51,573 nt of DNA from Planctomycetota bacterium (GTDB taxonomy: Bacteria > Planctomycetota > GCA-002687715 > DRQF01), in NCBI GenBank assembly GCA_036479435.1, contig JAZGFI010000065.1, positions 1 through 51,573 of the forward strand, read 5' to 3'. The first letter of the stretch is position 1, and every line of letters starts with the position of its first letter. The notes below the pieces were generated by a model, which was given only the letters and a program-made list of their open reading frames with translations, was not told the DNA's origin and searched no databases. Shown here piece after piece: positions 11,096 through 25,859 of the stretch. Made by a program: the position numbers and the translations under genes.

Positions 11096-11576
11096 GACGC
11101 GGCCAGGGTAGCGGAAAGCGGAGGCCCTTTCATCGGGCCTGCGAAGGGCCCGTACTTCGTGCTTGCCAAGCCCAGCAAGAGTTCTGCCACCAAGACCTCC
11201 CCTGTTGGGCGAGAGCGCCGGGCAAGTTGCTCGACTCTGAAACGCCGCTTCATGATCATTTCGGAGAGGAGTTACTGAAGTGGCCACAGTGCATCCAGGG
11301 GCTTTCGGCGAAGATCTCAGAACTATTGGTTCAACGCCCTTGATCTGGTCTTGCCGGGGTTGCAAAGATGATTGCGGGCCAGCCGGGGCCTAGACTTGTC
11401 GGCTTTGACATCAATTCCATGCGCGATTCGGGAATGGCGAGGAGTTTAGGTTGAAGGAGCGAGCCATTTCCTGTCTCCTTCAAGTGCTGCATACTTCAAG
11501 GAACTCGGTGATGACTCAACCCGAAATCACAAGCATCGGTTGATACAGAAGTGGTCTCAGTGAATCGAGATGAATA

Positions 11577-13268
11577 ATGAGAAAGTACATAGAGAAAACG
11601 AATCCGCCTTGGTCTCATCGGGTCGGCGCCCGAGCAAGGTTTACCGTGATAGCCGCAGTGTTTTTGTTGATTGCCTCAGTAGGGTGCGGCCAAAGCAAAC
11701 AGCAGGAGTCACGGGATTCGGTATTCGAAGGGCCAGACGGAGTTGATGTTTGGTCACTCTCAGATGAGAGGCGCCTAGGGCAACTCTCCTTAGAAGCGGA
11801 GGCCCTATGGCCCGCATGGCCAGAGACCATCGGCGCGATGGATGCGTGGTTGGTGCGAGCGAGCCGGTTGAGCTCGCGCCTATCACATCACAAAAAACAG
11901 CTGGAGATAGTGCGTGAGTTGGCGTCTCCCTATCTCGATGAAGAACGCGAGCGAGATAAGGGCTCCATGCGCGAAGAGACTCGCGAGCATGCCGTCTTGG
12001 TGGAGAGGCACCGCGAATTGGGCGACCGCCTCGCGGGCCTGTCCGAGAGCAATGAATCTGAAGCAAAAAAGAGAATTCTACGCCTCGAGTACGAGAGCAC
12101 GTTGAACTACCACAAAAAGCGACAGGTGGAGTTAGAGACCCTCCTGGCACTTCGCCTCACGTGGAGTTTCCCGTCAGTCGAACTGCGCTGGATTCACGAT
12201 TCGTTGGAACAATTGATCAAAGATCTTGAGACACTCAATGACCCGAGACGAGGGCTGATAGGGAAGTTGGTGAAACGCCGAAGCCTGGCGCGCGGCGTTG
12301 CCAAGGGAACCGTCGAGCACGAGTCAGCCTGGACCACGGCCATCCAAGCATTGTCGGATCCGAAACGCTGTCCGCTGTATGGCGGTATCAGCATTAAGCC
12401 ACAAGTCGGTTTGGTCCCGCTCGGTCAGGACCCGCGTTCTCTTCTCTGGGAGTTTGCGGACTTGCAAACGGGCGTAAAGCCGAAGCGTGACGCAGCTGGC
12501 GTTCTGACGCTGAGCGACGCTGCAGGAATCGTGTTCGTTCTTGTTCCTGGTGGTTCGCTTTCTGTGGCAACTCCGGAAGGATCCAACTCCTCGATTGTCG
12601 AGAAACAGCTTTCGCGCACTCTGTCCATATCTCCATTTTTTGTTTCGAAGTACGAATTGACACAAGCCCAGTGGCAGCGCTGGACTGGAGAGAACGAAAG
12701 CCAGTACGCCGTGGGGCTCAAACATGCCGGCAAACTCGTCACGGCCAGAAACCCTGTCGAGAGGATCACCCGGATGCAGGCTCGACGTGTGCTCCAGCAA
12801 ATGGGTATGGATCTGCCGACCGAAGCGCAATGGGAGTACGCTGCGCGTGCTGGGACGTCGACGGCGTGGTGGACCGGCAATGACGTCAGGTCGCTTCAGG
12901 GAGCGTGTAATCTGGCCGACCGCTTCTGTCAAAACCACGGCGGACCGCCGACGTGGCGCTACGAAGTTGGCATCAACGACGGCGCCGTCGTTCATGCTCG
13001 AGTCGGCAGCTATCGCGCCAATCCTTTCGGGCTACATGACGTCATCGGCAATGTTTGGGAGTGGTGCCGCGAAGATTCCGAATCTGACGGCAACCCCAAG
13101 GCATTGGAATTCGGAAGGCGATCGTCCGATCCGAAATTGGCAGTCGTTCGGGGCGGCGGCTTCGATACCGGCTCGGCCGGTGCGCGATCTGCTTATCGCA
13201 ACACTGTCGATCCGAAGTTCCGCAGCCCCAGCACCGGCATACGACCGGTTCGGGAAATTCAACCCTAG
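11577..13268 (+). CDS. Putative lipoprotein with C-terminal FGE-sulfatase (SUMF1-like) domain
   Basis: Lipobox-like LIASVGC, coiled-coil middle; LPTEAQWEYAARAG, NPFGLHDVIGNVWEW, RGG motifs; catalytic FGE Cys pair not seen. Confidence 0.85.
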   Translation: MRKYIEKTNPPWSHRVGARARFTVIAAVFLLIASVGCGQSKQQESRDSVFEGPDGVDVWSLSDERRLGQLSLEAEALWPAWPETIGAMDAWLVRASRLSSRLSHHKKQLEIVRELASPYLDEERERDKGSMREETREHAVLVERHRELGDRLAGLSESNESEAKKRILRLEYESTLNYHKKRQVELETLLALRLTWSFPSVELRWIHDSLEQLIKDLETLNDPRRGLIGKLVKRRSLARGVAKGTVEHESAWTTAIQALSDPKRCPLYGGISIKPQVGLVPLGQDPRSLLWEFADLQTGVKPKRDAAGVLTLSDAAGIVFVLVPGGSLSVATPEGSNSSIVEKQLSRTLSISPFFVSKYELTQAQWQRWTGENESQYAVGLKHAGKLVTARNPVERITRMQARRVLQQMGMDLPTEAQWEYAARAGTSTAWWTGNDVRSLQGACNLADRFCQNHGGPPTWRYEVGINDGAVVHARVGSYRANPFGLHDVIGNVWEWCREDSESDGNPKALEFGRRSSDPKLAVVRGGGFDTGSAGARSAYRNTVDPKFRSPSTGIRPVREIQP

Positions 13269-13308
13269 AGATCGCGCAGCAACAACTATTTTAGGAGTTC
13301 ACTGATGT

Positions 13309-14022
13309 TCAATCGGACAGTCTCTTGATGAAAATCGCGTCAAGGTACGATTCACTCTCGAGGAGATCGGAATTGATGTCGTACTTGCGCGGCTCCTCGA
13401 AGAAACCTGGGTCGGACACTGCTAAGCAGTCGTAGTTTGCGCTGATCGCAGCATCGATGAATCGATAGTTGGTGTGATAGACGACCAGGACCCCACCTGG
13501 AATCAGCACTTTATCGAGGAGCGTGAGTTGTCGGTCGAATTTTTCGAACGGGTAGATGGTTCGCAATGATGGAGAGCCCTTGTGGCCGCTGGGAAAGCGT
13601 TGAAGAACGGCGAGGCAAAAGATGGCGTGGAAGGGTCCAGCGTGCTCAAGGCGCGCTTGGCTATAGGCGAAAAAGTGGTTTCCTTCGTGGGTGCTTGCAG
13701 CTTGCGCGTGGCGAATGTTGGCCCAGTTGATGTCGGTGCCGTGGATGTCAGCGTCGGCGAAGTATTTTCGCAGCGAGAACACTTCTTCCCCGGTTGAGCA
13801 TCCGAACGATAGGATTTTCGCACGATCGACGCCTTCGAGTCGTTTCTGCACGGTCTCGAAAAGCCAGGGATACCGGTTCATACCGGTCGTTACGCTGATC
13901 TGGTGAAGATGGGCGGGGTCGCGGCGGTACAAGAGATTTCGCTGAATCAAATCTCTACCCTTGATCAGCGCTTTAAGACTGGCGTTCGTGAAGCTGGCGA
14001 TGATCGACTTTTTTGCTCGCAT
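13309..14022 (-). CDS. Class I SAM-dependent methyltransferase (CheR-like SAM motif)
   Basis: ILSFGCSTGEE, GTDIN, AIFCLAVL, LIPGG. Confidence 0.82.
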   Translation of the reverse strand: MRAKKSIIASFTNASLKALIKGRDLIQRNLLYRRDPAHLHQISVTTGMNRYPWLFETVQKRLEGVDRAKILSFGCSTGEEVFSLRKYFADADIHGTDINWANIRHAQAASTHEGNHFFAYSQARLEHAGPFHAIFCLAVLQRFPSGHKGSPSLRTIYPFEKFDRQLTLLDKVLIPGGVLVVYHTNYRFIDAAISANYDCLAVSDPGFFEEPRKYDINSDLLESESYLDAIFIKRLSD

Positions 14023-14139
14023 AGTTTCAAGTCGGCTAAAGCGCGGATCTTACTAAATCATTCCGAGGTTGTGGGCGCAATCCCCAAAGGCTGTCTAAAT
14101 TCAAGGTGTCCACTACATTTTTCAGCAACAGTTGATGAG

Positions 14140-16056
14140 CTATCTTGGGGTCGTTGATGAACCGGTGTGTGGCGATGAGTGCAACCAAGTAATCAGCGTT
14201 GAGATTTTCCACAAGATGAGGGCGTCTTCACGACTCTTGTTTGCGGCGAATCGGGAGTGCATCGAACGTAGGAGTGGAAGATCTATCCAAGGCTCCACGA
14301 TTTCTGCTCGCTTGCCAAAGTCGTCACGAAGTCTCTTTTGTCCTACGGTCGCAAGCAAGTGTTCGAAATTGTGTCCGAGATTTGATTTGTCCCGGCGCCA
14401 TTGGATCGCCGCCGGGAGGATCCCGTCCATACCGCGCCGCAGGATCGAGCGAGTCCAACCGTCGCGTAGCTTCTGGTCTGGTGGCAGTCCGAGGCAGAAC
14501 TCCACTAGGCGCTTGTCCCAAAAAGGAAATCGAGGCTCGATGCCGAATGCTGTTGCTGCGTGCGAAAGCATCTCAAGTGTCGCTGGCATGACTCCCCATG
14601 TGAGGAGGTTCAGGTGCATTTCTTTTTCGTTCGCAAACTTTCGTTTGCGCTCTCTGCCAACATGCTCGCGGTGATCAAGCAAGCCAATTCGATCGACGAA
14701 CTCTTCTCGCAGAGGTTGATACCACTTAGCGTCGTCTCGGGGCACTCGGCTTCGTGCGCGGCGCTGAAGTACATGGCGCAGACGACCTGGAAGCTTAGGC
14801 AGGATTCCTCCATACCAAGCGTAACCCGAGGTGTACTTGATCGGCGAGAGTCCATTGGAGCGTGCGACGCCACTAGCTTCCCGAGCTAGCTTCCACCATC
14901 GCCACTCCCGCGCCAACTCAATCAAGTATCCAGTACCGTGTGATATGGTCGTGTCGCCGTCGAACCCGTCGAGGATGACTCGGTTGCCGTTTTTTTGCGC
15001 TAAGCCATACATGCCCCAGTTCAGGAACAGATTAGGTGCGCCGCAGGGTTCATCTTCGATCTGCCGTACAGAGGGCGGTGTCATCAAGGGGTTGGCTTTG
15101 TCGCCCTCGAAATAGAACGGAAGACATCCACCATCGTCGATGACGGTCTGGATGAATCGACTTTCATCAGAGGCCGGTACACTCATAAAAATTGACGAGA
15201 ATGTCGATAGCGGCTCACCGCCAGCTTTCCGGTTAAGGTCGCGCGCGACGCAAGTAATGGATGATGAGTCAAGACCTCCACTCAACAGTGAACCGACACC
15301 TTCGGTGTTCTGTGTGCGGCATCTCACTGCTTCCTCAAAAATCTCTCGAAAGGAATCGACGTAGTCTTTGTCGTTTTTCCTGAGGGTTTTCTGGCCCGGA
15401 TCCGGCGCCCAGTACTTTCGAAGGGTTGAAGATTTCTCGTCGACCGTGATCCAATGCGCTGCCGGGAGTCTTGAGATCTCGCAAAAGTGGGTCCGCTTGA
15501 CATCGTCGAAATTCGAATTGATGTAGTCCGCGATTTTCAGTTCGTCGAGATCGCCTCGTACCCAAGGAAGTGAGAGGATAGCTTTGATCTCGCTAGCGAA
15601 TGCGAAGCGAGAGGGGCAAAGGTGATAGTAAAGCGGCATGACCCCTAGATGATCGCGCGCACAGTAGACCCGTCGCTTCTCGGCGTCCCAAATGACGAAC
15701 GCGAAATCACCGAGAAGATGTTCGGCGCAGTGTTCGCCCCAACGCCTATACGCGGCGAGAATCACATTCGAGTCAAGATCTTCGGATAGCTCGCTTGGAC
15801 GGAAATCGGTCTGACGGATGATCTCGTCGCGATTATCGATGCGGGCCAGAGCTGTTATCTGCAAATTCGGCGTCTTGGTCGCTGCGCCGGTGTTCTCAGC
15901 AGGCAAGTCGCGACATTGCCCCAAACCGACCTCGTGGCGGCGAAAAAGACGATGGCCAGCGGGGGCTCGATGTCTCAGTCGACGAGCCATGGCATCAAGC
16001 TCGCTTTGCTCGAGTTCATTGCCGTTGCGTGTCATGATTCCGAAAACGCCGCTCAC
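14140..16056 (-). CDS. Lasso peptide cyclase (C protein, asparagine synthetase homolog)
   Basis: MSGVFG (Ser in place of the AsnB Cys2), ARIDNR, GDFAFVIWD, ARDHLG, LSGGLDSS, PFWDKRLVEF; B1, B2 and precursor genes nearby. Confidence 0.92.
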   Translation of the reverse strand: MSGVFGIMTRNGNELEQSELDAMARRLRHRAPAGHRLFRRHEVGLGQCRDLPAENTGAATKTPNLQITALARIDNRDEIIRQTDFRPSELSEDLDSNVILAAYRRWGEHCAEHLLGDFAFVIWDAEKRRVYCARDHLGVMPLYYHLCPSRFAFASEIKAILSLPWVRGDLDELKIADYINSNFDDVKRTHFCEISRLPAAHWITVDEKSSTLRKYWAPDPGQKTLRKNDKDYVDSFREIFEEAVRCRTQNTEGVGSLLSGGLDSSSITCVARDLNRKAGGEPLSTFSSIFMSVPASDESRFIQTVIDDGGCLPFYFEGDKANPLMTPPSVRQIEDEPCGAPNLFLNWGMYGLAQKNGNRVILDGFDGDTTISHGTGYLIELAREWRWWKLAREASGVARSNGLSPIKYTSGYAWYGGILPKLPGRLRHVLQRRARSRVPRDDAKWYQPLREEFVDRIGLLDHREHVGRERKRKFANEKEMHLNLLTWGVMPATLEMLSHAATAFGIEPRFPFWDKRLVEFCLGLPPDQKLRDGWTRSILRRGMDGILPAAIQWRRDKSNLGHNFEHLLATVGQKRLRDDFGKRAEIVEPWIDLPLLRSMHSRFAANKSREDALILWKISTLITWLHSSPHTGSSTTPR

Positions 16057-16075
16057 TGCCTGTCTTCCCTAATTC

Positions 16076-17917
16076 GTGATCGTCTATGCACCAACGCACC
16101 TCATGGCAGCGTCAAAGCGAAGTGTTACAACTTTCACCATGAGACTCATGCAGTTTGTTCGTTCCAAAGTTGGACGATACACGAGAGGCCGGTTACTCGT
16201 CTTGCGCCTGTGGCCTTCCATGAAACCGCACATGCGGTACGTGTGGGCCATGGTGGCATTTTTGACCTTGAGCTTACCCGTTGCGCTCGTTTCGCCTCTG
16301 GTCATTCGGACTATCATTGACGACGCCGTTGTCCGCTCGAGCACCGATGGACTGTTATTTTGGTCCTGTGTCCTGTTCCTTCTTGCGACCCTGAGCGCAT
16401 TGCTTGGGCTCGGCGTGGGGTATGTGACGACGGTCTTTCGAACCAGAGTCATCCATGACTTGCGGTTACGTCTGTATCGCAAGATGCAGTCGCTCTCCTT
16501 GGAATACTACCGCTCGCACGAAACCGGCCAGATGATGTCGCGGCAGACCGATGACGTCGGTCAGCTCTCCGGGATCCTAGCCGATCGTCTGGCACGGATT
16601 GTCATTGACGCCATCAAGGCCTGTGGCTGTGCGGCGATGCTGCTTTATGTCGAATGGCGCCTTGCCGTTGCGGGTGTTGGGCTTGCGTTGTTGATCATCG
16701 TGATGCAGTTCGCCTTCTCCAGGAAACTGCGAGATTGCAATCGCCGCTCTCGCGAGCGTTGGACCGATGTGAGCCAGTCGATTCACGAGTCAATAACCGG
16801 CAACTTCCTCATCAAGGCAACCGCGTCTGAGCGACGCGAAGCAGTTCGTTTCGCCTCTGTCCTGCATCAGAGCATACGCGCTGACGTTCGCCGAGACATC
16901 TTTGGCCTTTGGACAAATCACTCCACATCACTCCTGGCCGGCGTCGCACCGGTAGTTGTGATCATTGGAGGCGTTTACTTGATCGTGTCGGGCGGTTTGA
17001 CGATTGGCGGCCTTTTCGCTTTCTTCGTTCTTTTGGTCCAGATGTTTAACGCGGTTTCCGGCGTTGCCCACAGCAACCCTGCGATCCAACGCGGCCTCGC
17101 GTCACTTGAGAGGATATTCGAGGTGCTCGATACCGAGCCCGAGATTCCAAACGGGACTCACGGAGTTCGTCCCGACCGATTACTTGGAGCGGTCACTTTT
17201 CGCGATCTTTCATTCGGCTACGTTGCCGATCAGCCCGTGTTGCGCAACATCGCATTTGAGGTTCCAGCACGAGGGCGGATTGCGTTAGTTGGGCCTTCGG
17301 GTGCAGGGAAAAGCTCACTGATGCATTTGATTCCGCGTTTTTTCGAGCCTCAATTAGGGTCGATCGAGGTCGATGGGCGTGATATTCGGGAACTTGATTT
17401 GGCTTGGTATCGACGGCAAATCGGACTGGTCGCCCAGGATGTGTTCCTATTTAGCCGGTCGATCGGCGAGAACATTTCCTATGGTCGACCTTCGGCGAGT
17501 CGTGATGAAATGGAACGTGCCGCGAAGGCTGCTCATGTGATGGAGTTTGTCGAGGAGCTGCCGGACGGATTCGACACTCTCATCGGCGAGCGAGGAATAC
17601 GGCTGTCGGTTGGTCAGCGTCAAAGGATCGCGATAGCCCGCGAGATCCTGCGAGATCCTGCGATCCTCATTCTCGACGAAGCGACATCGTCACTGGACTC
17701 AAACTCGGAAGCTCTTATTGGCGAAGCGCTTGAACGCTTGCTGCCAGGCCGCACATCCTTCGTCATAGCGCATAGGCTTTCGACGGTGGTACGTTCCGAC
17801 CTTATCTTGGTGATAGACAAGGGTTGCATCGTTGAGAGTGGGCGGCACAACGAGCTTCTCGCGAGTGGGGGTCTCTACGCTAGCTTCGTGCAATCGCAAC
17901 GCCTCTTGGGGAGCTGA
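16076..17917 (+). CDS. ABC exporter, fused TMD+NBD
   Basis: TM helices, Walker A GPSGAGKS, signature LSVGQRQ, Walker B ILILDE, H-loop; true start may be downstream (e.g. ATG 16139). Confidence 0.93.
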   Translation: MIVYAPTHLMAASKRSVTTFTMRLMQFVRSKVGRYTRGRLLVLRLWPSMKPHMRYVWAMVAFLTLSLPVALVSPLVIRTIIDDAVVRSSTDGLLFWSCVLFLLATLSALLGLGVGYVTTVFRTRVIHDLRLRLYRKMQSLSLEYYRSHETGQMMSRQTDDVGQLSGILADRLARIVIDAIKACGCAAMLLYVEWRLAVAGVGLALLIIVMQFAFSRKLRDCNRRSRERWTDVSQSIHESITGNFLIKATASERREAVRFASVLHQSIRADVRRDIFGLWTNHSTSLLAGVAPVVVIIGGVYLIVSGGLTIGGLFAFFVLLVQMFNAVSGVAHSNPAIQRGLASLERIFEVLDTEPEIPNGTHGVRPDRLLGAVTFRDLSFGYVADQPVLRNIAFEVPARGRIALVGPSGAGKSSLMHLIPRFFEPQLGSIEVDGRDIRELDLAWYRRQIGLVAQDVFLFSRSIGENISYGRPSASRDEMERAAKAAHVMEFVEELPDGFDTLIGERGIRLSVGQRQRIAIAREILRDPAILILDEATSSLDSNSEALIGEALERLLPGRTSFVIAHRLSTVVRSDLILVIDKGCIVESGRHNELLASGGLYASFVQSQRLLGS

Positions 17918-17936
17918 GATCAATGGCGCTGTTCGC

Positions 17937-17982
17937 AAAAAACGGCGGGGCCGCAACCTTGAGTTGCGGCCCCGCCAGTTTT
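17937..17982. terminator. Bidirectional intrinsic terminator
   Basis: 14-bp perfect stem GGCGGGGCCGCAAC (17944-17957) / GTTGCGGCCCCGCC (17963-17976) with an A6 tract on the left and TTTT on the right, between the convergent ABC and precursor genes. Confidence 0.85.
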
Positions 17983-18005
17983 GGCTAATTCTATGCGCCT
18001 GAGCG

Positions 18006-18152
18006 TTAGGAACCGATGACGCTCGAGACGTCACCGACTACTGCAGTACCGATCGGCACGTCAACTTGGTTGCCGCCACCTTGTTGGGTGACCTGCTCCA
18101 GGTCACCCAAGACCACCAACTTTGGTGTCTGGTACGCTTTCTTGCCTTCCAT
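18006..18152 (-). CDS. Lasso peptide precursor (A), 48 aa
   Basis: Hand-translated MEGKKAYQTPKLVVLGDLEQVTQ-QGGGNQVDVPIGTAVVGDVSSVIGS*; YxxPxL leader, G...T(-2), Asp at core position 8, C-terminal Ser; AGGAG RBS at 18163-18167 (-); terminator right after the stop. Confidence 0.9.
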   Translation of the reverse strand: MEGKKAYQTPKLVVLGDLEQVTQQGGGNQVDVPIGTAVVGDVSSVIGS

Positions 18153-18460
18153 GGATTCACTACTCCTACAATCACTACGATTCGTTAGTTACTTGATCGG
18201 CATGATAGTAGTCGAAAACGCTCTGACCTACTCTTTTTTTTTGCCAGCACCCGTAGTCGCGCGGCCTCAACCTTAAGTGGTCTCTTGGCAAGGAGATAGG
18301 TATGGTGAAAAGTATTGCTCGATCAGGGATTTGAGGCCGCTCCTGGCACCGCTCCGGCCAAAATTTGCTCGCGTGGATCTTTGATAGACTCGCACTCTCG
18401 GGTGCATAGGTGTTTTCTAGCTGACCTTCCCTCGTTCCCAAAGTTTGTCGAGGTCTCAAG

Positions 18461-21400
18461 ATGATTCGATCTCAAGAATTCACGGGGGTCTTGTTTGTCG
18501 TCAGCCTTGCGGCGTTCGGTGTCTTGGCTTTTGGACAGAATCAGCGAGGTCGCAAGATGGTTCGGGGAGAGTTGTCAATCCGCATTGATTTGAAGCAGGC
18601 CCTCTCAAATGGGACTTCGAATGAAGTTGGACGAGCACTCCTGGCCAAGATCGGCTACCGCCGCGAGAATCTATCCGAGGAGAAGTGCGCGCTCTACGTG
18701 AAGCGCCGTCTGACGATTGGGGAATTGACGGTGTTGTCGGCTCAGGGCGTCGACCTGCACGAGACTTGGGTTCCGCCGGTCGAGGGAAAACACCCTCACG
18801 GCTTCTATTTGGCGACTGTCAGTCACGAGAGTTTCAAATTGATCGAGCGCGATCAACGATTTGTTCGTGTAGAGAGCACTGAGCGCCTTTTTTCAACTCA
18901 GAATGACTTGGGCCGTTCTGTCATAAATGCCGACGACGTCAATTCTGGTTTGGGAGTTTCGGCTCGTGATGGGAGCGGCGTCAAGATTGCCATCCTCGAC
19001 ACTGGCGTTGACCTTACAAGCACCGACTTTCCGACGCCGGTAGAGGCATTCGATGTGACGGACGGAGTTGGTCTCGCCAACTGGTCGACTAATGTCGCCA
19101 ATACGACCTCCGGACACGGGACGCATGTCACCGGTTCCGCAGTCGGCAATGGAGGGCACTCTGGGGGCTTGTACCAGGGAGTCGCGCCTGGTGCCGACTT
19201 CTACTTTTACAAGATCGCAGAAGACAGTTTTGGTGGGATCTTCTGCGACGACATTATTGAAGCACTCACCAGAGCCGCGTTCGTGGGCTGTGACGTCATC
19301 TCATTAAGCATTGCAGGCTACACCGAATTCATCGATGGCTCTGACCCCATCTGTCAAGCTGTAGACGTCGCCGTAGCTGCAGGCTCGTCCGTCTTTATTT
19401 CCGCAGGGAATCAGGGAGACAAGGAACATCACGCGTCGGCTGCGGCTGCACCCGCGACAACCTCTGCGCCCGTTGGCTACTTGGTCGACAACTCTGCGGG
19501 ACCCTCGACGCTGACGACGAGCGATTTTTTTAGAGTGATTTGGAGAGACGACATTCCGGGAGACTTCAACATCTCTTTGAGTGTCGCTAACCTCGGGCCG
19601 GGCGAATCCATCACTCTTTTCACGTCAAATTCAAGTGTGAGAGGAACGGAAAGTCGGTTCTATCGCCTGACAAAAAACCTCGCGGCTGGGGCCACCAAGA
19701 CCTATCAGTTCGAGTACGTCAACTCCGCGACCAGCGGAACGACTCCGCTCGTCCACAGCTACTGGTTTGCGGGAGATGGCATCTTCTCCGCTGCTGACCC
19801 GGCGTACACGGTGCAGGCGCCAGCACTCGCTGACGATGCCATTGCGGTCGGCGCCTTGCATCATCGCGCGGCGTGGACGGACTACCAGGGCAACGGCCAA
19901 ACTGCGAGTTCTGGTGTTTTGGGGGATCTTGCCAACTTTAGCTCCAAAGGCCCGCGCATCGACGGCCTGATGGCGCTCGACCTTCTGGGCCCAGGCTCTG
20001 CGTCCATTTCGATTCGTGATATCCCATTCCATAGCAACGATGCCGCGACCATCGACGACGATGGGGCGACTCTAGACGGTAGTGGCCCGGCGAATTACTA
20101 CGCGCTAAGCGGCACAAGTATGGCGACTCCCCAGGTCGCCGGAGTTGCGGCATTGGTGCTTGAGGCCGATCCGACGCTCTCTCCGGCGCAGTTGAAGTCC
20201 GTCTTGACATCGACGGCGGCAAACGCCGCGTCTCCTGATAGCTCAAGAGGCCATGGCCTTGTAGATGCGCTCGCCGCAGTCCTCAGCCTTGAGCAACCCC
20301 CCGGGATTACATCGATCACTCCCATGTCTGCGCCAGCAGGCATGTCTTCCGTGACGGTGACGGTCACGGGAAGCAACTTCACTGCCGACAGTGTTGTCCA
20401 TTGGGATGGCATACTGCAGACAACGACTTTCACGAGTTCTTCGATCCTGGGCACGTCTATCCCTGGGTCACTGCTGTCCAGCGCCGGGACGGCTGTCGTG
20501 ACCGTCGTGACAGCGCCGCCGGGAGGCGGGATAAGCAATGGCGAGGTCTTTACGATTGGCGTGTGCGCCTCGATGATTGCCGCATTCCCTTGGACTGAGG
20601 ATTTTGACTCGCTTCCCGGAAACGGCGGAACGGCACCTCCCTTGATTTGGGAGCAGGATCAAGCAGATGGAGGCGGCACCGGTAGTAATGCAGAATGGGT
20701 TTTCCGAAGTGGGGACACTCCCACGATTGGAACCGGGCCAGCGAGTGATCACAGCACGGGCGTGGCCGGGCAGGGCGTCTTCGCCCACGTCGAAGATGAC
20801 GGTGACCATCCTGCCGTGATCCTGTGGACTCCCTGCCTCGATCTTTCGGCGCTTTCGAACCCGATCATGAGATTTTGGATACACAGCAACAATGGGGCCG
20901 TGCTACCGACCATGTCAGAAAACACCTTGCACGTCGACGTTCTCGACCTTGTGGCAGGAGTTCTCGTTTCAGACGTTGTCACTCCCATCGGTCACAGGGG
21001 TGACGGCTGGGTCGAGCAGATCGTCGACCTTGCGCCCTTCGCTGGCTTGGCCGTCCAGATCGGCTTTCGCGGAACAAGCGATGGGGGCTCGAGACTACAC
21101 GACATAGCCTTGGATGACGTCGTTGTCTTCGAAGGCTTGCCTGCAGGCGGTCAAGCGCCACAGCTCGGTTTCGCAATCCTCGACATCGAGGACGCACTAA
21201 ACCCGAATGGCCTTGGTGTAGGTAGCGGTGGCAACGGTCCTTACGACGCGACTACAACGACTATCCAGCCGCTTGACATTTCAATCGTTGGCGTGCCAAA
21301 CCAAGCGATCTTGCTGTTGATGGGGCCTCTTAATGTTGGATCGGCGGTTTTCAATCCTCAAGGGCAACTCGATTGTGGCACTGCAATTGTCTCCGGTACC

Positions 21401-21613
21401 GGCGTCCCTGGTGGTCTTTCCATCGTCGCTGATGGCAATGCCCCGGGTTTTCTCAATTCGCTGTTTAATCTGTCATCAAATGGGACGTTTGATTTTTCAT
21501 TCAGCATCCCGGCTTCGCTTTCGGGCTTCCATTCCTGTTTTCAGGCAGTCGTCTTCAACGGCCAAGCCTCGGTTGTTTCAATTTCAAATGCCGTCGATTT
21601 GTTGATATTCTGA
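18461..21613 (+). CDS. Secreted S8 subtilisin-like peptidase with IPT/TIG and MAM-like C-terminal domains
   Basis: Signal peptide; triad ILDTG, GHGTHV, GTSMATP; SAGN oxyanion motif; ITSITP...VTGSNF IPT repeat; TGPASDHST MAM-like motif. Confidence 0.9.
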   Translation: MIRSQEFTGVLFVVSLAAFGVLAFGQNQRGRKMVRGELSIRIDLKQALSNGTSNEVGRALLAKIGYRRENLSEEKCALYVKRRLTIGELTVLSAQGVDLHETWVPPVEGKHPHGFYLATVSHESFKLIERDQRFVRVESTERLFSTQNDLGRSVINADDVNSGLGVSARDGSGVKIAILDTGVDLTSTDFPTPVEAFDVTDGVGLANWSTNVANTTSGHGTHVTGSAVGNGGHSGGLYQGVAPGADFYFYKIAEDSFGGIFCDDIIEALTRAAFVGCDVISLSIAGYTEFIDGSDPICQAVDVAVAAGSSVFISAGNQGDKEHHASAAAAPATTSAPVGYLVDNSAGPSTLTTSDFFRVIWRDDIPGDFNISLSVANLGPGESITLFTSNSSVRGTESRFYRLTKNLAAGATKTYQFEYVNSATSGTTPLVHSYWFAGDGIFSAADPAYTVQAPALADDAIAVGALHHRAAWTDYQGNGQTASSGVLGDLANFSSKGPRIDGLMALDLLGPGSASISIRDIPFHSNDAATIDDDGATLDGSGPANYYALSGTSMATPQVAGVAALVLEADPTLSPAQLKSVLTSTAANAASPDSSRGHGLVDALAAVLSLEQPPGITSITPMSAPAGMSSVTVTVTGSNFTADSVVHWDGILQTTTFTSSSILGTSIPGSLLSSAGTAVVTVVTAPPGGGISNGEVFTIGVCASMIAAFPWTEDFDSLPGNGGTAPPLIWEQDQADGGGTGSNAEWVFRSGDTPTIGTGPASDHSTGVAGQGVFAHVEDDGDHPAVILWTPCLDLSALSNPIMRFWIHSNNGAVLPTMSENTLHVDVLDLVAGVLVSDVVTPIGHRGDGWVEQIVDLAPFAGLAVQIGFRGTSDGGSRLHDIALDDVVVFEGLPAGGQAPQLGFAILDIEDALNPNGLGVGSGGNGPYDATTTTIQPLDISIVGVPNQAILLLMGPLNVGSAVFNPQGQLDCGTAIVSGTGVPGGLSIVADGNAPGFLNSLFNLSSNGTFDFSFSIPASLSGFHSCFQAVVFNGQASVVSISNAVDLLIF

Positions 21614-21637
21614 TCTCGCTAGGCCGAAAAAGAGAAC

Positions 21638-22576
21638 ATGACCAGTCCTTCGAAACTCAATCGCACTAGCAGGCCTCGACTTCGGCGGGCCTATGGCCTT
21701 TCCATTTCGTCGGAGTTGGAACTTCCCGAGCTTCTTGAGTCCGACGATTCAAACACAGCTGCGGATGTTCAGATTCGATATGGTTCCATTTCGCGTTGGC
21801 CGAAAGAAATTGAGGACACTCGAAATGGCATTTGGAGTGAGGGCAACCAGATCTGTCACTACTTCAAGGACGTTGGGGCGTTTCTGGTTGAAGACGGTTG
21901 TAGGATCACGATCGATCCCGAGGGAGATGTCGCCGAAGGAGTATTGCGCCTTTCACTTCTCGGCCCTGTCATGGCGCTTGTCTTGCACCAAAGAGGGCGC
22001 TTTATCGTCCACGCGAGTGCCGTGTCCGTTGAAGGCGAGGCTATAGGGTTCATAGGCGCTCACGCGTGGGGGAAATCGACGATAGCCACGGCTTTCCACC
22101 GGCGCGGTCATGGTTTGATTAGCGACGACGTTCTTGCCATCGAGTTGAGGGATGAGTCCTGCTACGTCTGCCCGAGTTTCCCGCAACTGAAAGTTTGGCC
22201 CGACGCCGTCGCGTCTCTAGGCACGGATGTTGAAGCGCTCCCTCGAGTCCATCCCGAATTCGAAAAACGAGCCATTCAGTTCAAGAGTTTTGACCATCAG
22301 TCCCAAGTCTTGCGGAAACTGTACGTTCTCGATCGAGTAGACACAGCTCCTCAAATCATGGATTTGACGCCAAGTGCGATGATCGGAGAGTTGATCAAGC
22401 ATTGGTATGGCGCGCGCTACGGCATCGAGTTCCTGAGAGCACAGTCTTGGAAATCGCATTTTCAGATTTGCGCGGAAATCGCAACCAAGGCCGCAGGGGC
22501 ACGACTTTGTCGTCCTTCCGATCTGGAGGCCCTTGATGCCACAGTGGACCTCGTTGTGAGTGATTTATGTGAATGA
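21638..22576 (+). CDS. HPr-kinase-like lasso peptide kinase
   Basis: YGLSISSELELP, HASAV, Walker A GAHAWGKST, SDD, PQLKVWPD. Confidence 0.85.
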   Translation: MTSPSKLNRTSRPRLRRAYGLSISSELELPELLESDDSNTAADVQIRYGSISRWPKEIEDTRNGIWSEGNQICHYFKDVGAFLVEDGCRITIDPEGDVAEGVLRLSLLGPVMALVLHQRGRFIVHASAVSVEGEAIGFIGAHAWGKSTIATAFHRRGHGLISDDVLAIELRDESCYVCPSFPQLKVWPDAVASLGTDVEALPRVHPEFEKRAIQFKSFDHQSQVLRKLYVLDRVDTAPQIMDLTPSAMIGELIKHWYGARYGIEFLRAQSWKSHFQICAEIATKAAGARLCRPSDLEALDATVDLVVSDLCE

Positions 22577-22766
22577 AGAGCCTGCGCGAAAGCCAGAAAT
22601 TGGACGAAATGTCCTTTTTTTTTGGCAAAAATTGTAGCCGTTGCGTAGGCTCATGGGTCAGGCCGGCGGCGTGGCCCCCTGCAGTTTTCCGCCCCACCCC
22701 TAACGTTAGCTATCGAGATGAGATTCGTTCGCCGGTTTGGGCGGCCATTGAGAAGGAACCGCACTC

Positions 22767-23045
22767 TTGAAGATCACGACGTCGTCGACAGTAGTCGCTA
22801 TCAAAGAGCAGGTATCCTGCGATCTCTCGGACGACACGGTCGTCTTGCATCTCAAGTCGGGCGTCTACTTCAAGCTCAATGAAGTCGGGGCGCGCATCTG
22901 GGAGTTGCTTGTCTCTCCACGGGGCTTTCTTGACCTTCAAGAGATCATCGTTTCTGAATTTGAGGTTTCGGCCGAACAATGTGAAGGCGATCTCATCAAG
23001 ATTCTCGGTGAACTTGCGAAACACGGCCTGGTTGAGGATGGGTAG
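22767..23045 (+). CDS. PqqD-family RiPP recognition element (lasso B1)
   Basis: DTVVLHLKSGVYFKLNEVGARIWELL...EFEVS...D...L...GL; TTG start with AAGGA RBS. Confidence 0.92.
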   Translation: MKITTSSTVVAIKEQVSCDLSDDTVVLHLKSGVYFKLNEVGARIWELLVSPRGFLDLQEIIVSEFEVSAEQCEGDLIKILGELAKHGLVEDG

Positions 23046-23505
23046 GATTCGGAATTACCGCCGACTCTCATTTCGGAGACGGCGTGCGCTTCGCGCCGCA
23101 TTTTTGGCCATCTTGACGGTGAGATTTCTCATTACGGTTCTTCCGTTTCGCTTTTGGAAGCGGCTCCTCGTCTACCGAGAGTCGGCGCTCCGGGGTCGAG
23201 GCATCTCGGCTCCGGAAACCACGAGTGTTGTCGTTTGGGCCGTGTCGCTGGCGAGTCGCCATGTTCCGTGGTCAGAGACCTGCCTCGTTCGGGCGCTCGC
23301 CGCACACAAGTTGCTCGCCCGCTCCGGGGTCGCCTCCATCATCCACATTGGAGTTGGCTCGTCGCCGGAAGGCGCTTTCCAAGCTCACGCATGGGTCCAG
23401 TGTCGTGATGTCGTTGTTATTGGCAATGAGCCTGCCGAGGGCGGAGTCGAGCGTTTTACGCTCTTGCATACGCTGGGTGCGGCGCTGCCGTTGGCACGGA
23501 GCTGA
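23038..23505 (+). CDS. Lasso peptide leader peptidase (B2, transglutaminase-like)
   Basis: TCLVRALA (Cys), IGV, AHAWV (His); ATG 23038 overlaps the B1 stop. Confidence 0.92.
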   Translation: MGRIRNYRRLSFRRRRALRAAFLAILTVRFLITVLPFRFWKRLLVYRESALRGRGISAPETTSVVVWAVSLASRHVPWSETCLVRALAAHKLLARSGVASIIHIGVGSSPEGAFQAHAWVQCRDVVVIGNEPAEGGVERFTLLHTLGAALPLARS

Positions 23506-23582
23506 TGCGATGAAGCTGACAGCTCAGACGCGCCCTGCCGATTGGGATTTCAGGAAAACTCACAATTGCCAGGAAGTCCGTT

Positions 23583-24623
23583 ATGGATGTCGCTGAACCG
23601 GTTTTTGCCACCGTAGCGCGCTACCTGATGCGAACCGCAGTCGGGAGCGATGCCAAGGAGCAGTTAGAAGATGTTCGGCGTCTTCTGCCAGGGTTACGAC
23701 CGGCGGCAATGTGTGCACTCATGACAGAACTGGGCGTACACTTGCTGCTGCCCCAGGCTTATCAGCAGTTCCACACGGACGGTGTCCTTTGCCTGTTGCC
23801 AGAAACTATTCAGCAGCAACTCGCGGCAGCGCGCACAGGCGCCTACATCAATGCTGGCGTAAGAGCCCGCGCTCTAAGCCGCGTAGTGATGGAATTTCGG
23901 AAATGCGGGATCGATCCGGTGCTCATGAAAGGCATGGCGCTCGCCAACACGGTTTATCCGATATTTGGCGCTCGCCAAATGGTGGATGTAGACCTCTGGG
24001 TGACCAGTGGTGACCTCAGCGAACCTGATAGAATCCTCGCGGATCTTGGCTATTTGCTCAAAGACGATTTGGCGGACGGCCACGTCTTCGATGGCCCGGG
24101 GAACGTTCGGCTTGACGTGCACCGGCGACTTCGCATCTTTGATCAATTTGAACCGGCTATCCTTGTCACCAAAGTCAGCCCCCCCCACCTTAGCCTTGAC
24201 GAAGTCTCGGTGTTTTCTCCGCCTGTGACCCTATCTCATGTCGCCTATCATATGGCGGCTCATTGGCCAAAAACCGGATTGCAAGCCAGATGGGTTCTCG
24301 ACTACGCGATGCTCATCGCTTACCACAAGCGTGACTTGAAGCCCGAGGAAGTCTTGCGGTTTACTCCGGCAGAATCTCGAGGTTGGGTTTCCGGCCTTGC
24401 ACGTTTTGTGGCCGAGGAATTGGGTCTCGATCCCCATCCAGGATTGCTTGACATTGACGCTGATGGGCCAAAGATTACGCTCCAAGAAATCGCTCGCTCC
24501 CGCCGTCGTGCGCTTTGGGGCATCCCGAAGTGGCGTGGCTGGTTGCGCCTCGGCGCGGCCGTTACAGGTGTTCGGCCGAGGCCGACTTGGCCTCGGCCGC
24601 GCCTCGCTGACTTCGTGCCGTAA
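23583..24623 (+). CDS. Nucleotidyltransferase (NTP_transf_5-like)
   Basis: LMKGMAL..T.YP..GAR.M.DVDL, LDVH, H..H. Confidence 0.85.
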   Translation: MDVAEPVFATVARYLMRTAVGSDAKEQLEDVRRLLPGLRPAAMCALMTELGVHLLLPQAYQQFHTDGVLCLLPETIQQQLAAARTGAYINAGVRARALSRVVMEFRKCGIDPVLMKGMALANTVYPIFGARQMVDVDLWVTSGDLSEPDRILADLGYLLKDDLADGHVFDGPGNVRLDVHRRLRIFDQFEPAILVTKVSPPHLSLDEVSVFSPPVTLSHVAYHMAAHWPKTGLQARWVLDYAMLIAYHKRDLKPEEVLRFTPAESRGWVSGLARFVAEELGLDPHPGLLDIDADGPKITLQEIARSRRRALWGIPKWRGWLRLGAAVTGVRPRPTWPRPRLADFVP

Positions 24624-24809
24624 AACGCTAATGCCAAAAGTGCTCGCTTGGATCGACAACCAGTCCGCCGCCGCGTAAGGTAACCGCTATCTAACCTGGG
24701 CCACCAAGCATCAATGAAAATAAGGCCGCCTCTCTGGCATCGGGCTAGATGTCGCCAGGATAGGTGACCCTTTCAATAATCCTAGTCCTATTTCCTATTC
24801 AACAACACC

Positions 24810-25859
24810 ATGAATTCCCGAGTCGAACTTCAAGATGGAACAGTGTGCTTTGGGGAGAGTTTTGGCGCGACCCGCCCTGTCGCCGGGGAGGTCGTTTTCA
24901 ACACCGGCATGGTCGGTTATCCCGAGAGCCTGACAGATCCCTCTTATCGGGGGCAGATTCTCGTATTTACCTACCCTCTGGTGGGGAATTACGGGGTGCC
25001 ATCCGGTCGGCTATCGCGGCTGGAGAGTGATGAAGTTCAAGTGGCTGGAGTTATTGTGGCGCAGTTTTCGCGTTTTCATCGACATGCGGACGCGGATGCT
25101 TCATTGCAAGGTTGGCTTCGCGATGCCGACGTGCCTGCAATTTCCGGTATCGATACTCGATTCCTGACGCGTCATCTGCGCGCACACGGTTCCATGCTTG
25201 GAAAGATCCTTCCGGACGACCGCGACGTCGCCTGGAGCAACCCCAACGATCTCAACCTCCTGTCGGAGGTCAGCATCAAGGAACCCGTTGAGAGTGGGTC
25301 CGGAGCAAAGACGGTGCTCCTTGTCGACTTCGGTTGCAAACGGAGCATTGAAACCTCGTTGCTCCGTCGCGGTTTCCGCGTCAAGCGCGTGCCGTGGAAC
25401 TGTTGTATCAGCAATGAGGCCGCAGATGCCGTCCTCCTATCCAATGGGCCAGGTGATCCGCGGCACTACTCAGGTGTCATCGAACAGGTCGCCTTGGAGC
25501 TTGCAGGCGATCGGCCCGTACTGGGGGTTTGCCTCGGTCATCAACTTATGGCCTTGGCTTCTGGTTGTGAGGTTTTCAAGTTGCCCTACGGACATCGAGG
25601 CCAAAACCAGCCCTGCCGTGAAGTCGGCACCCGCCGGTACTTCATCACCTCCCAGAATCATGGATACGCCGTCGATTTGGCAACAATTGACGGTGTTTGG
25701 CTCCCGTGGTTTGAGAATGGGAATGACGGCACCTGTGAGGGGCTTCGGCACTCTCAAAAACCGCACATGTCCGTTCAATTCCATCCCGAGGCACGCCCAG
25801 GGCCGAATGACACAGCATTTGTATTCGATCGATTCTTGGAGCTGATCCATGCCAAGTGA
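24810..25859 (+). CDS. carA: Carbamoyl-phosphate synthase small subunit
   Basis: GEVVFNTGMVGYPESLTDPSY, LSNGPGDP, GVCLGHQ, SQNHGY, QFHPE. Confidence 0.97.
   Translation: MNSRVELQDGTVCFGESFGATRPVAGEVVFNTGMVGYPESLTDPSYRGQILVFTYPLVGNYGVPSGRLSRLESDEVQVAGVIVAQFSRFHRHADADASLQGWLRDADVPAISGIDTRFLTRHLRAHGSMLGKILPDDRDVAWSNPNDLNLLSEVSIKEPVESGSGAKTVLLVDFGCKRSIETSLLRRGFRVKRVPWNCCISNEAADAVLLSNGPGDPRHYSGVIEQVALELAGDRPVLGVCLGHQLMALASGCEVFKLPYGHRGQNQPCREVGTRRYFITSQNHGYAVDLATIDGVWLPWFENGNDGTCEGLRHSQKPHMSVQFHPEARPGPNDTAFVFDRFLELIHAK

Follow-up and report, generated by a model that had tools for sequence, protein, structure and literature searches.

A split-B lasso peptide gene cluster of paeninodin/pseudomycoidin type from a probable planctomycete, with a methyltransferase as probable third tailoring enzyme

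The interval 13309–24623 of the 51,573-nt window (the whole stretch of DNA that was analyzed) contains a complete split-B lasso peptide pathway in which every reading frame is intact. The lasso components are a 48-aa precursor (A), a cyclase (C), B1, B2, an ABC exporter (D), an HprK-like kinase (K), a PF14907 nucleotidyltransferase (NT), and a SAM-dependent methyltransferase (MT) (Table 1). An earlier note on this DNA had claimed a complete lasso cluster comprising a cyclase lacking the Cys2 of AsnB, a PqqD RRE, a B2 peptidase, an ABC exporter, an HPr-like kinase, a nucleotidyltransferase, a SAM methyltransferase, and a precursor ending in Ser. All of these were found intact with Pfam and NCBIfam profiles and ORFs, and the profiles of Asn_synthase, PqqD, Transglut_core3, and PF14907 each gave a match; the parts list had left out the gene of a 1050-aa S8 protease, which lies between the precursor and kinase genes and takes over one quarter of its length. 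The arrangement in four orientation blocks is borne out by the strands: C-MT (−), D (+), A (−), and S8-K-B1-B2-NT (+). A 54.5-kb contig from another study covers positions 13000–25000 with zero differences, and identical DNA was assembled from the runs of three studies. By indirect evidence, the source is probably a planctomycete.

Table 1 Genes and other features of the lasso peptide locus (positions in the window)
Feature	Position	Strand	Basis
SAM-dependent methyltransferase (MT), 237 aa, class I fold	13309..14022	-	Generic Pfam methyltransferase matches only
Lasso cyclase C, 638 aa, GTG start	14140..16056	-	Asn-synthetase fold; Pfam Asn_synthase 161 bits + GATase_7
ABC exporter D, MsbA-like half transporter	16076..17917	+	Pfam ABC_membrane + ABC_tran
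Bidirectional intrinsic terminator between D (+) and precursor gene (-)	17943..17977	.	16-bp stem, 12 G-C pairs
Precursor A, 48 aa, C-terminal Ser	18006..18152	-	ORF; NF033521 lasso leader 24.7 bits (cut-off 19)
Secreted subtilisin-like S8 protease, 1050 aa, TIG + choice-of-anchor domains	18461..21613	+	Pfam Peptidase_S8 139 bits
HprK-like peptide kinase K, 312 aa	21638..22576	+	Conserved catalytic motif; Pfam Hpr_kinase_C 26.6 bits
Putative 65-codon ORF	22573..22770	+	Fills K-B1 gap exactly, 4-nt overlaps at each end (ATGA, TTGA)
B1, PqqD-type leader-recognition protein, 92 aa, TTG start	22767..23045	+	Pfam PqqD 60 bits (cut-off 23.4)
B2, transglutaminase-like leader peptidase, 155 aa	23038..23505	+	NF033537 88.4 bits (cut-off 33); Pfam Transglut_core3 75.5 bits
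PF14907 nucleotidyltransferase (NT), 346 aa, PsmN-like	23583..24623	+	PF14907 101.4 bits (cut-off 31.2)

The precursor, which had been reported without coordinates, is now placed in its own short gene (Table 1). Its sequence is MEGKKAYQTPKLVVLGDLEQVTQQGGGNQVDVPIGTAVVGDVSSVIGS, and its codon-usage score (0.27) is the top among all genes scored. The score against NF033528 (31.3 bits) is slightly below the cut-off of 33. Residues 1–23 form the leader, with Tyr7, Pro10, Gly16, and Thr22, and residues 24–48 the predicted core, with a predicted ring of eight residues (Gln24–Asp31) and a tail ending at Ser48. In an alignment of 19 precursors, Pro10, Gly16, and Thr22 (position −2) show no variation, and conservation of Tyr7 is 90% or higher; a further trait of the family is an Asp located 8–9 residues past the cut. 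The calculated monoisotopic mass of the predicted 25-residue core as a lasso is 2293.155. To our knowledge, Gln as the first core residue is unusual among characterized lasso peptides, and a cut one residue further on, giving a Gly1–Asp7 ring, might apply instead. A C-terminal Ser is present in 17 of the 28 precursor-like rows (E ≤ 0.05), eight of these 17 being near-identical Mesorhizobium peptides, and in six of the seven rows from methyltransferase loci. The closest relatives of the precursor (the peptides of L018, L019, L021, L123, and G008) are likewise Ser-ended.

The cyclase scored 643.5 bits against NF033535 (lasso peptide isopeptide bond-forming cyclase; cut-off 525), and its best non-self homologues are 44–47% identical. 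It begins with Met-Ser-Gly, so that Ser occupies the site of the nucleophilic Cys2 of AsnB, and the alignment shows no variation in the PP-loop SGGLDSS. B1 is below the cut-off of NCBIfam lasso_PqqD_Bac (62.6 versus 80 bits), and its family profile matched TbiB1 (5v1u, E 1.8e-23), PbaB1 (9x90, E 2.6e-22), and TfuB1 (6jx3), all of which are lasso recognition proteins. The best start of B2, chosen by reading the sequence, is the ATG at 23038, which overlaps the stop codon of B1. Homologues of the exporter with 23–42% identity occur in most related loci; NCBIfam alignments of D start near residue 40, and its true start may be located ~20–50 codons further downstream. In the terminator that separates the D and precursor genes, a T run follows the stem on the minus strand, and the RNA fold (−45.7 kcal/mol, z −5.6) was equaled by none of 200 shuffles.

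The kinase retains the catalytic motif, though its Hpr_kinase_C score is below the Pfam cut-off of 33.3 bits and its similarity to HPr kinase structures is weak (E 0.084). Across 94 aligned cluster kinases, His125, Gly145-Lys146-Ser147-Thr148, and Asp163-Asp164 are kept in 90% or more, and the His-Lys-Asp-Asp catalytic residues are spaced as those mutated in BsfK. According to the accessible part of the literature, the His/Lys/Ser/Asp-Asp motif is essential in PadeK, ThcoK, and BsfK (BsfK: PMC10368454). For the nucleotidyltransferase, all 17 sequences compared share Gly117, Asp135, Asp137, His180, and Asp240. The predicted model (pLDDT 87.6) is closest in fold to ANT(2'')-Ia (TM-score 0.65–0.70 on the target) and LnuA. 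Asp135 and Asp137 correspond to the Asp-x-Asp residues targeted by mutagenesis in PsmN; as described in the available text of that study, PsmN was inactivated by D134A/D136A and was likened to ANT(2'')-Ia (PMC6993621).

The profiles of the cluster proteins were used to screen 80 loci around cyclase relatives in other phyla. They detected the kinase in 62 loci, to which tblastn added L018, and B1 likewise in 62; B2 was detected in 59 loci and the nucleotidyltransferase in 42. By its sequence features, the core of the cluster is of a known kind, the paeninodin/pseudomycoidin type, because the kinase and nucleotidyltransferase usually stand beside the cyclase relatives, the precursors are mostly Ser-ended, and the cyclase exceeds the NCBIfam cut-off. 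The pairing of kinase and nucleotidyltransferase is the norm among the cyclase relatives and the cyclase belongs to a curated NCBIfam family; neither is new. The related loci also lend support to the hedged suggestion of the earlier note that the product is a phosphorylated, possibly glycosylated or nucleotidylated, and possibly methylated lasso peptide of a planctomycete-like host. As the note had stated, no characterized lasso peptide from this phylum was found in the literature, which was searched mainly at listing level.

Here, we propose a course for the pathway, in which the sequence features are observed and the chemical steps are all inferred. The 48-aa precursor would be made from its own gene, which ends at the strong terminator, and its YxxPxL-G-T leader would be bound by B1. 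Ser48 of the linear precursor would then be phosphorylated, one or several times, by the HprK-like kinase. After B2 cleavage past Thr22-Gln23, the cyclase would activate Asp31 (core Asp8) with ATP and couple it to the new amino group of Gln24, yielding a ring of eight residues and a tail of 17. The PF14907 enzyme may put a hexose (or a nucleotide) on the phosphate, as PsmN does, and the methyltransferase may place a methyl group on the decorated C-terminal end. The finished peptide would be exported via the ABC transporter. Taken together, the interval likely represents a working split-B lasso pathway of the kinase type that follows this course.

The methyltransferase is probably the third tailoring enzyme of the pathway. 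Its family shows the conserved motifs HQTT..T..RYP and LSFGCSTGEE, and its model (pLDDT 83) matched only generic class I methyltransferases. Of 80 metagenome loci with homologues of the methyltransferase, 29 have one adjoining a lasso kinase, B1, or B2 gene, and the kinase is often directly beside the homologue (seven loci). Alternatively, the kinase and nucleotidyltransferase may be the sole tailoring enzymes and the methyltransferase a neighbor with another job, for example, envelope polysaccharide methylation. We regard this as doubtful, although no convincing homologue occurs among the 80 loci whose cyclases are most closely related (weak generic matches of 25–28 bits in two) or in 10 planctomycete lasso loci, the enzyme is on a long unplaced branch of its family tree (a quick tree only), and 13 of the 28 methyltransferase loci of at least 10 kb carry no lasso gene; 12 of these 13 were annotated, and six are polysaccharide clusters. 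The other 15 carry a lasso-type kinase; among 401 whole genomes sampled from the phylum, only 25 have a homologous kinase (kinase-type lasso clusters, ~6%). Moreover, no homologue of the methyltransferase was found in 40 relatives, so the gene does not belong to the resident housekeeping set. It follows the cyclase gene on the same strand after a gap of 117 nt, in which no terminator-like site was found, and no polysaccharide genes were found flanking it.

For methylation within the pathway, an oxygen atom on either the phosphate or its attached sugar is the favored acceptor, ranked above a carboxylate. Formation of a carboxyl methyl ester, at the C-terminal carboxylate as in lassomycin or at an Asp side chain, seems rather unlikely. 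The SAM-binding motif GCSTGEE and the weak Pfam match (24.2 bits) resemble CheR, a carboxyl O-methyltransferase, and the accessible literature describes the C-terminal methyl ester as an established lasso modification that is added to the linear precursor. However, the likeness to CheR is limited to the SAM-binding region and is below the cut-off of 27 bits, Pfam gave no match to the family modeling StspM or to PCMT/PIMT, and the methyltransferase family is otherwise at home in polysaccharide clusters. In such clusters, methylation does not usually take the form of carboxyl esters.

It is improbable that the kinase targets the internal Thr36, Ser43, or Ser44, all held by the core, instead of Ser48. 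BsfK acts on Ser3 of its core, according to the available text (PMC10368454), and 11 of the 28 precursor-like rows end otherwise than in Ser, with a kinase in most of those loci. The precursor and its closest relatives, however, end in Ser, whereas BsfA has a terminal Asp, and BsfK is reported in the same text to be <21% identical to the C-terminal Ser kinases.

The S8 protease, with a Pfam TIG domain and NCBIfam choice-of-anchor Z and J domains, is probably cotranscribed with K-B1-B2-NT, and it most likely belongs to the secreted proteases resident in this lineage rather than to the pathway. It is very unlikely that the protease trims or breaks down the peptide after export, or that it serves as another leader protease: the gene heads its block 24 nt from the kinase start, and linear polyphosphorylated peptide clusters, which share the kinase and NTP transferase, have another dedicated secreted-type peptidase, but no S8 homologue was found in 80 + 80 + 10 related loci (0/170), the C-terminal ~400 residues are a lineage-wide multi-copy module (8 of 8 family relatives, 1–31 matches each), and B2 is already there, intact. 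The 65-codon ORF matched no Pfam or NCBIfam family, and no counterpart was found in the related loci; with a codon score of −0.003 it is neutral (real genes, 0.06–0.27), and 8% of shuffles of the K-B1 gap remain open in its frame.

[quoted passage not shown] The present cluster differs in host phylum, in the extra methyltransferase and S8 genes, in its four transcription blocks, and in the predicted ring closure (Gln1–Asp8 versus Ala1–Glu9 in pseudomycoidin; PMC6993621), and its leader has YxxP instead of the WxxP typical of Bacillota paeninodin-like peptides. The paeninodin cluster (PadeA/C/B1/B2/D/K), as far as the consulted texts describe it, lacks both a nucleotidyltransferase and a methyltransferase; the same texts also cover the kinases ThcoK and SyanK and place kinase-type clusters in Proteobacteria too (PMC9266682, PMC8498205). 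The bsf cluster of Bradymonas sediminis likewise has A, B1, B2, C, D, a kinase, and a nucleotidyltransferase, and BsfK has the same spacing of catalytic residues. In the available part of that report, phosphorylation is strongly stimulated by B1, and the phosphorylated residue is in the ring of a precursor with Ile at −2 and a terminal Asp, compared with Thr(−2) and Ser here (PMC10368454). The closest counterparts by cyclase, the NF033535 (cyanobacterial type) loci B1-B2-C-A-K-D(-N), occur in Cyanobacteria, Verrucomicrobiota, Chloroflexota, Mesorhizobium, and others; their precursors (for example, L018, L019, and L021) resemble the present one in leader and ring region, and kinase and nucleotidyltransferase are usual companions. 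Unlike the present cluster, these loci have their genes in collinear order on a single strand, and neither the methyltransferase nor the S8 gene is among them. No characterized product of this branch was met with in the literature consulted. The new element is the methyltransferase family, so far apparently unstudied in lasso clusters of this kind; no mention of it was found in the accessible parts of lasso peptide reviews. WbdD of E. coli O9a combines a kinase and a methyltransferase and caps a polysaccharide with methyl phosphate. The methyltransferase model matched the WbdD structure 4ax8 only generically (rank 33, TM-score 0.45), and WbdD acts on sugar, whereas the candidate substrate here is a peptide. 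The present family is also found in ABC-transporter polysaccharide clusters, a setting like that of WbdD, and by analogy a class I methyltransferase could possibly act here on the phosphate laid down by its partner kinase.

The interval 13309–24623 of the window contains ten clear genes split over four orientation blocks (see the table). The earlier note had described a complete lasso peptide cluster here, and the core genes are all present: precursor A, PqqD-type recognition protein B1, leader peptidase B2, cyclase C and ABC exporter D. The components that it listed were all found again, together with an S8 protease gene that it had overlooked and the precursor gene, which it had left unplaced.

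Features of the lasso peptide cluster and its downstream flank
Feature	Position	Strand	Remark
SAM methyltransferase (MT), 237 aa	13309–14022	−	
Cyclase C	14140–16056	−	GTG start
MsbA-like ABC exporter D	16076–17917	+	divergent from cyclase
Bidirectional terminator	17943–17977		16-bp stem, 12 G-C pairs
Precursor A, 48 codons	18006–18152	−	
S8 protease, 1050 aa	18461–21613	+	heads plus-strand block
HprK-like kinase K	21638–22576	+	
B1	22767–23045	+	190-nt gap after kinase
B2	23038–23505	+	ATG start overlaps B1 stop
PF14907 nucleotidyltransferase N	23583–24623	+	directly after B2
carA, carB	downstream of N		carA with own promoter-like site

The four-block layout is real and is no assembly artefact. 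A 54.5-kb contig from another study's run spans 13000–25000 with zero differences, and the contigs of a third study are interrupted only at the terminator hairpin. This hairpin has an RNA fold of −45.7 kcal/mol (z = −5.6), a stability that no sequence in 200 shuffles attained. An Rfam scan of 11000–27000 (E ≤ 0.1) gave no match. The cyclase and MT genes are spaced by 117 nt on the same strand, and no terminator-like site was found between them; the divergent spacer between the precursor and S8 protease genes is 308 nt. As annotated, the cyclase and the exporter start only 19 nt apart and in opposite directions (16056–16076). The exporter family alignments begin near residue 40, so translation of the exporter probably starts further downstream, and promoters would then fit in between. 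Just past N, one short contig (depth 9) of sequencing run X7 omits 61 bases at 24585–24647, which could reflect strain variation or an error. Upstream of the MT gene, an FGE-sulfatase-like gene (11577–13268) was rejected as a cluster member, its homologue being found in just one of 80 cyclase loci. Bounding a genomic island by synteny was dropped because the relatives are too distant; CarA had a full-length match in one relative only, at 45% identity.

A 65-codon ORF on the plus strand (22573–22770) exactly fills the kinase–B1 gap, with an ATGA overlap at the kinase stop and a TTGA overlap at the B1 start. It ends in Ser and contains W-x-x-P. No family match was found for it, nor any homologue in 170 related loci (80 around cyclase relatives, 80 around MT homologues and 10 planctomycete lasso loci). 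In codon usage it scores neutral, and the frame stays open in 8% of gap shuffles. The ORF may be a small coupled gene or have arisen by chance. A second precursor in this gap was rejected, as no frame carries a lasso leader motif.

The cyclase begins with Met-Ser-Gly, so Ser takes the place of the nucleophile Cys2 of AsnB, in agreement with the earlier claim that this cysteine is lacking. Its score against the NCBIfam model NF033535, "lasso peptide isopeptide bond-forming cyclase," is 643.5 bits (cut-off, 525), and it alone among the five AsnB-like loci in the genome exceeds this cut-off. The family consensus also has Ser at position 2, and the PP-loop SGGLDSS is kept and is invariant in the alignment. 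The four further AsnB-like genes of the source genome (G000; contigs C145, C151, C144 and C83) are all below the cut-off, the best at 203 bits. B1 matches Pfam PqqD with 60 bits (cut-off, 23.4); with NCBIfam lasso_PqqD_Bac, its 62.6 bits fall short of the required 80. A profile built from B1 together with 15 relatives matches lasso recognition proteins of known structure, namely TbiB1 (E = 1.8e-23), PbaB1 (9x90) and TfuB1. The predicted B1–precursor complex scored 0.57 and one control 0.44, and the prediction is counted neither for nor against binding. The assignment of B2 as the peptidase holds at 88.4 bits against the NF033537 cut-off of 33.

The 48-residue precursor ends in Ser, as had been noted. 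It carries Tyr7, Pro10, Leu12, Gly16 and Thr22, which make up the lasso leader pattern YxxPxL...G...T(−2), and scores 24.7 bits with the lasso-leader model NF033521 (cut-off, 19) and 31.3 bits with the lasso_cyano model, under the cut-off of 33. Its codon usage gave the top score among the genes tested, though the gene is outside the training set. Across 19 aligned precursors from related loci, there is no variation at Pro10, Gly16 or Thr22 and hardly any at Tyr7; the abstract of PMC10368454 states the role of the penultimate leader Thr. With Thr22 at position −2, the core would comprise the 25 residues 24–48, beginning with Gln and carrying Asp as the eighth core residue. Among the closest relatives, an Asp likewise follows the Thr-Gln pair at a distance of 8 or 9 residues, and the first core residue is Gln, Ala, Asn or Gly. 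From this spacing, a Gln1–Asp8 ring with a 17-residue tail is predicted; in the alternative, cleavage one residue later would give a Gly1–Asp7 ring. The C-terminal Ser is found in 17 of 28 precursor-like rows (E ≤ 0.05) from the cyclase loci, eight of the 17 being near-identical Mesorhizobium peptides, and is missing from the other 11. It is also present in six of seven precursor-like rows from the MT loci.

The host is probably a planctomycete. Indirect support comes from a PSD1 domain protein with 322 bits, a signal seen in none of 14 control genomes, and from the Atlas lead of the S8 protease described below. CarB is not decisive, its best non-self match being 69% identical and the rest about 60% across many phyla. 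In 401 sampled genomes of the phylum, as delimited by the search tool, B2 was above the cut-off in 32 and the kinase was found in 25, where it frequently shares a contig with B2; these counts indicate that the cluster type is sporadic but not rare. Ten loci fetched from nine genomes of the phylum show an ordinary collinear layout. One of the eight relatives of the same family, G008, has the order C-A-K, with a leader 62% identical to that of the window precursor. No close copy of the cluster was found in the 40 nearest genomes, where the best cyclase identity was 31–35%. The earlier remark that no characterised lasso peptide is known from this group agrees with the titles and abstract openings of the literature on Planctomycetes or Planctomycetota that mentions lasso peptides, which gave no isolated product; a few triculamin-like non-canonical clusters are mentioned there for the phylum.

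The S8 protease has a signal-peptide-like N terminus followed by the S8 domain and then TIG and choice-of-anchor domains. No homologue was found in the 170 related loci. Its last ~400 residues (about 650–1050; window 20400–21613) form a module that occurs in all eight family relatives (G001–G008), in 1–31 copies each, and in none of four order-level relatives at E ≤ 1e-20; the module is a lineage-specific, expanded domain of secreted proteins. The nearest Atlas cluster of the protease is mostly Planctomycetota (score, 0.87), which serves as a lead only. We read the S8 protein from these comparisons as a lineage-typical secreted protease that came to head the operon. With 24 nt between its gene and the kinase start, cotranscription of the two is likely.

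Relatives of the cyclase place the cluster among kinase-bearing types. The nearest cyclases are 44–47% identical, and those with names come from Verrucomicrobiia, cyanobacteria and Chloroflexota. The loci around cyclase relatives, one genome per species, were searched by tblastn and with profiles built here. In the best 80 of 581 confirmed matches, the kinase was present in 62, B1 in 62, B2 in 59 and the PF14907 enzyme in 42; the kinase of one further cyclase locus, L018, was detected by tblastn only, at the locus end, and is not included in the 62. Their usual order is B1-B2-C-A-K-D, at times followed by N, on one strand. The assignment of an HPr-like kinase to the window stands: at least 93% of the 94 cluster kinases that were aligned share His125, Lys146, Asp163 and Asp164. 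The enzyme also keeps Gly145-Lys146-Ser147-Thr148 and Asp163-Asp164, every residue being conserved in at least 90% of the 94. It scores 26.6 bits with Pfam Hpr_kinase_C (cut-off, 33.3), and most homologues in other lasso loci are also below this cut-off. The nucleotidyltransferase was likewise verified, with 101.4 bits for PF14907 (cut-off, 31.2), and its Gly117, Asp135, Asp137, His180 and Asp240 are invariant in 17 sequences. Its model (pLDDT, 87.6) has ANT(2'')-Ia (TM-score 0.65–0.70 on target) and LnuA as the top folds, and a PDB sequence search with its profile returned spurious repeat-protein matches only.

A SAM methyltransferase is present as had been claimed, and its role in the pathway is the least certain part of that claim. 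Its Pfam matches are limited to generic class I SAM methyltransferase domains, plus CheR below the threshold. No MT homologue was found in 40 relatives or in the 10 planctomycete lasso loci, and the best 80 of 581 cyclase loci held no convincing one, the two profile matches (25–28 bits) being generic. The family nevertheless comprises 1299 proteins at E ≤ 0.001 (best non-self match, ~43% identical) with motifs of its own, HQTT..T..RYP and LSFGCSTGEE. A scan of metagenome contigs using the family alignment gave 483 confirmed matches, of which the best 80 were kept. A lasso-type kinase, B1 or B2 occurs in 29 of these 80 loci, and among the 28 that are at least 10 kb long, 15 have the kinase and seven the PF14907 enzyme. 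Since the kinase was found in just 25 of the 401 phylum genomes, its presence in over half of the long loci (~18 kb) cannot be chance, and the sequence comparisons make the MT family a recurrent companion of lasso kinases. In the ten such loci annotated with Pfam, the MT gene directly adjoins the kinase gene in L107, L110 and L174 and is one small ORF apart from it in L102. Other arrangements are B2-MT-B1-K-sulfotransferase (L127), K-sulfotransferase-MT-C (L134) and K-B1-B2-N-ABC-MT-phosphoesterase (L120). Because of this recurrence beside lasso kinases, the window MT is probably a tailoring enzyme.

Pfam annotation of ten kinase-bearing MT loci covered 113 of 131 ORFs. Some kinase-type lasso loci (L102–L104, L107 and L120) have two or three tandem PF14907 genes and a calcineurin-like phosphoesterase; L102 adds the glycosylation genes GtrA, GT2 and YfhO, and a transposase pair is inserted inside the cluster of L107. 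Lasso loci that contain the MT (L126, L127, L132, L134 and L174) often have, in addition, Sulfotransfer_1/3 genes, genes for JmjC-type or Asp/Asn beta-hydroxylases and proteins with phage-tail-collar domains, which suggests that the products of these loci are heavily decorated.

Thirteen of the 28 long loci from the best 80 of 483 have no lasso gene. Twelve of them were annotated, and six of the 12 are polysaccharide clusters (L109, L150, L154, L169, L171 and L172) with glycosyltransferases, flippases, pyruvyl transferases, MsbA-like ABC transporters and a sulfotransferase; among the remainder, one has a glycosyltransferase together with an NRPS, and the rest offer no informative context. The family members in polysaccharide clusters may be polymer-capping or sugar methyltransferases. 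In a quick tree, the window enzyme forms a long branch that is left unplaced. The lasso label clusters only weakly, with 18 changes as against 21.8 on average after shuffling (18 or fewer in 21 of 500 shuffles).

The co-occurrence with the kinase, which is more frequent than that with the nucleotidyltransferase, and the other homes of the family, where sugar or phospho-sugar polymers are made, point to the oxygen of the phosphate, or of a sugar on the phosphate, as the favoured acceptor, little above a carboxyl ester. A fold search retrieved only generic class I enzymes (TehB, TrmR and CheR; the O-antigen kinase-methyltransferase WbdD at rank 33) with TM-scores of at most 0.53 and gave no acceptor clue. 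A CheR protein-glutamate O-methyltransferase is not supported: the CheR match (24.2 bits; cut-off, 27) covers the SAM-motif region only, and CheR structures rank 11–26 with TM-scores of ~0.5. The lassomycin type (LasF or StspM) was also set aside, because the Pfam matches are only generic class I and weak CheR ones, and the 237 residues are too short for the catalytic His and Glu near 242 and 296. The PIMT type of cellulonodin and lihuanodin is dismissed by the lack of a PCMT match at E ≤ 0.01 and by Gln, not Asp, at core position 6.

Here, we propose with considerable reserve that in many phyla this small CheR-motif MT carries out a tailoring step of kinase-type lasso peptides that has not been described before. 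The methyl group would go onto the phosphate placed by the kinase on the C-terminal Ser, or onto the sugar attached to it, to give a capped, phosphatase-resistant methyl-phosphodiester end; the full proposal is doubtful. Some O-antigens are capped by a kinase-then-methyltransferase logic, and if this logic is shared, it would explain why the MT family is split between lasso and polysaccharide clusters. An MT in kinase-type clusters is not mentioned in the accessible text of lasso reviews, a 2024 RiPP methyltransferase review, a 2026 interlocked-peptide review and a 2026 paper on linear polyphosphorylated peptides, while supplementary genome-mining co-occurrence tables may list it. A full-text literature search gave no title or abstract on such an enzyme in these clusters.

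To our knowledge, only a few Bacillota and Proteobacteria are sources of phosphorylated and phospho-glycosylated lasso peptides, and we know of no biological role for these compounds. The present cluster, whose host is probably a planctomycete, adds a defined candidate for which the core and the monoisotopic masses are predicted: 2293.155 for the lasso, 2373.121 with phosphate, 2387.137 with phosphate and methyl, 2535.174 with phosphate and hexose, and 2549.190 with phosphate, hexose and methyl. Of greater use, it draws attention to an MT family that accompanies lasso kinases in many uncultured bacteria. Should the MT act on the phosphate or sugar, ribosomal peptides would gain a new modification, and peptide ends could be capped with a new tool; otherwise, the cluster adds another predicted member to a known type.

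Comparison with studied systems places the kinase and the nucleotidyltransferase on familiar ground. The His-Lys-Asp-Asp residues were shown to be essential in lasso kinases (PMC9266682), and the spacing of H148, K169, S170, D186 and D187 in BsfK of the bsf cluster (PMC10368454) equals that of the window kinase motifs. The D134A/D136A variant of PsmN, the nucleotidyltransferase of the pseudomycoidin cluster, is inactive (PMC6993621). The structures 5cfs and 4xje, which its authors named for PsmN (PMC6993621), are both among the fold matches of the window enzyme; the latter is likened to PsmN by motif, fold and gene position after B2. StspM is modelled on mitomycin 7-O-methyltransferase, and the window MT is set apart from that type by its length and Pfam matches. 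The kinase and nucleotidyltransferase evidence identifies the core as a paeninodin/pseudomycoidin-type cluster, and by its gene content the cluster is real and complete, belongs to a known kind and has the familiar tailoring pair of kinase and nucleotidyltransferase. Its variant features are an MT family unstudied in this setting, the scrambled four-block layout, the embedded protease gene and the uncommon host.
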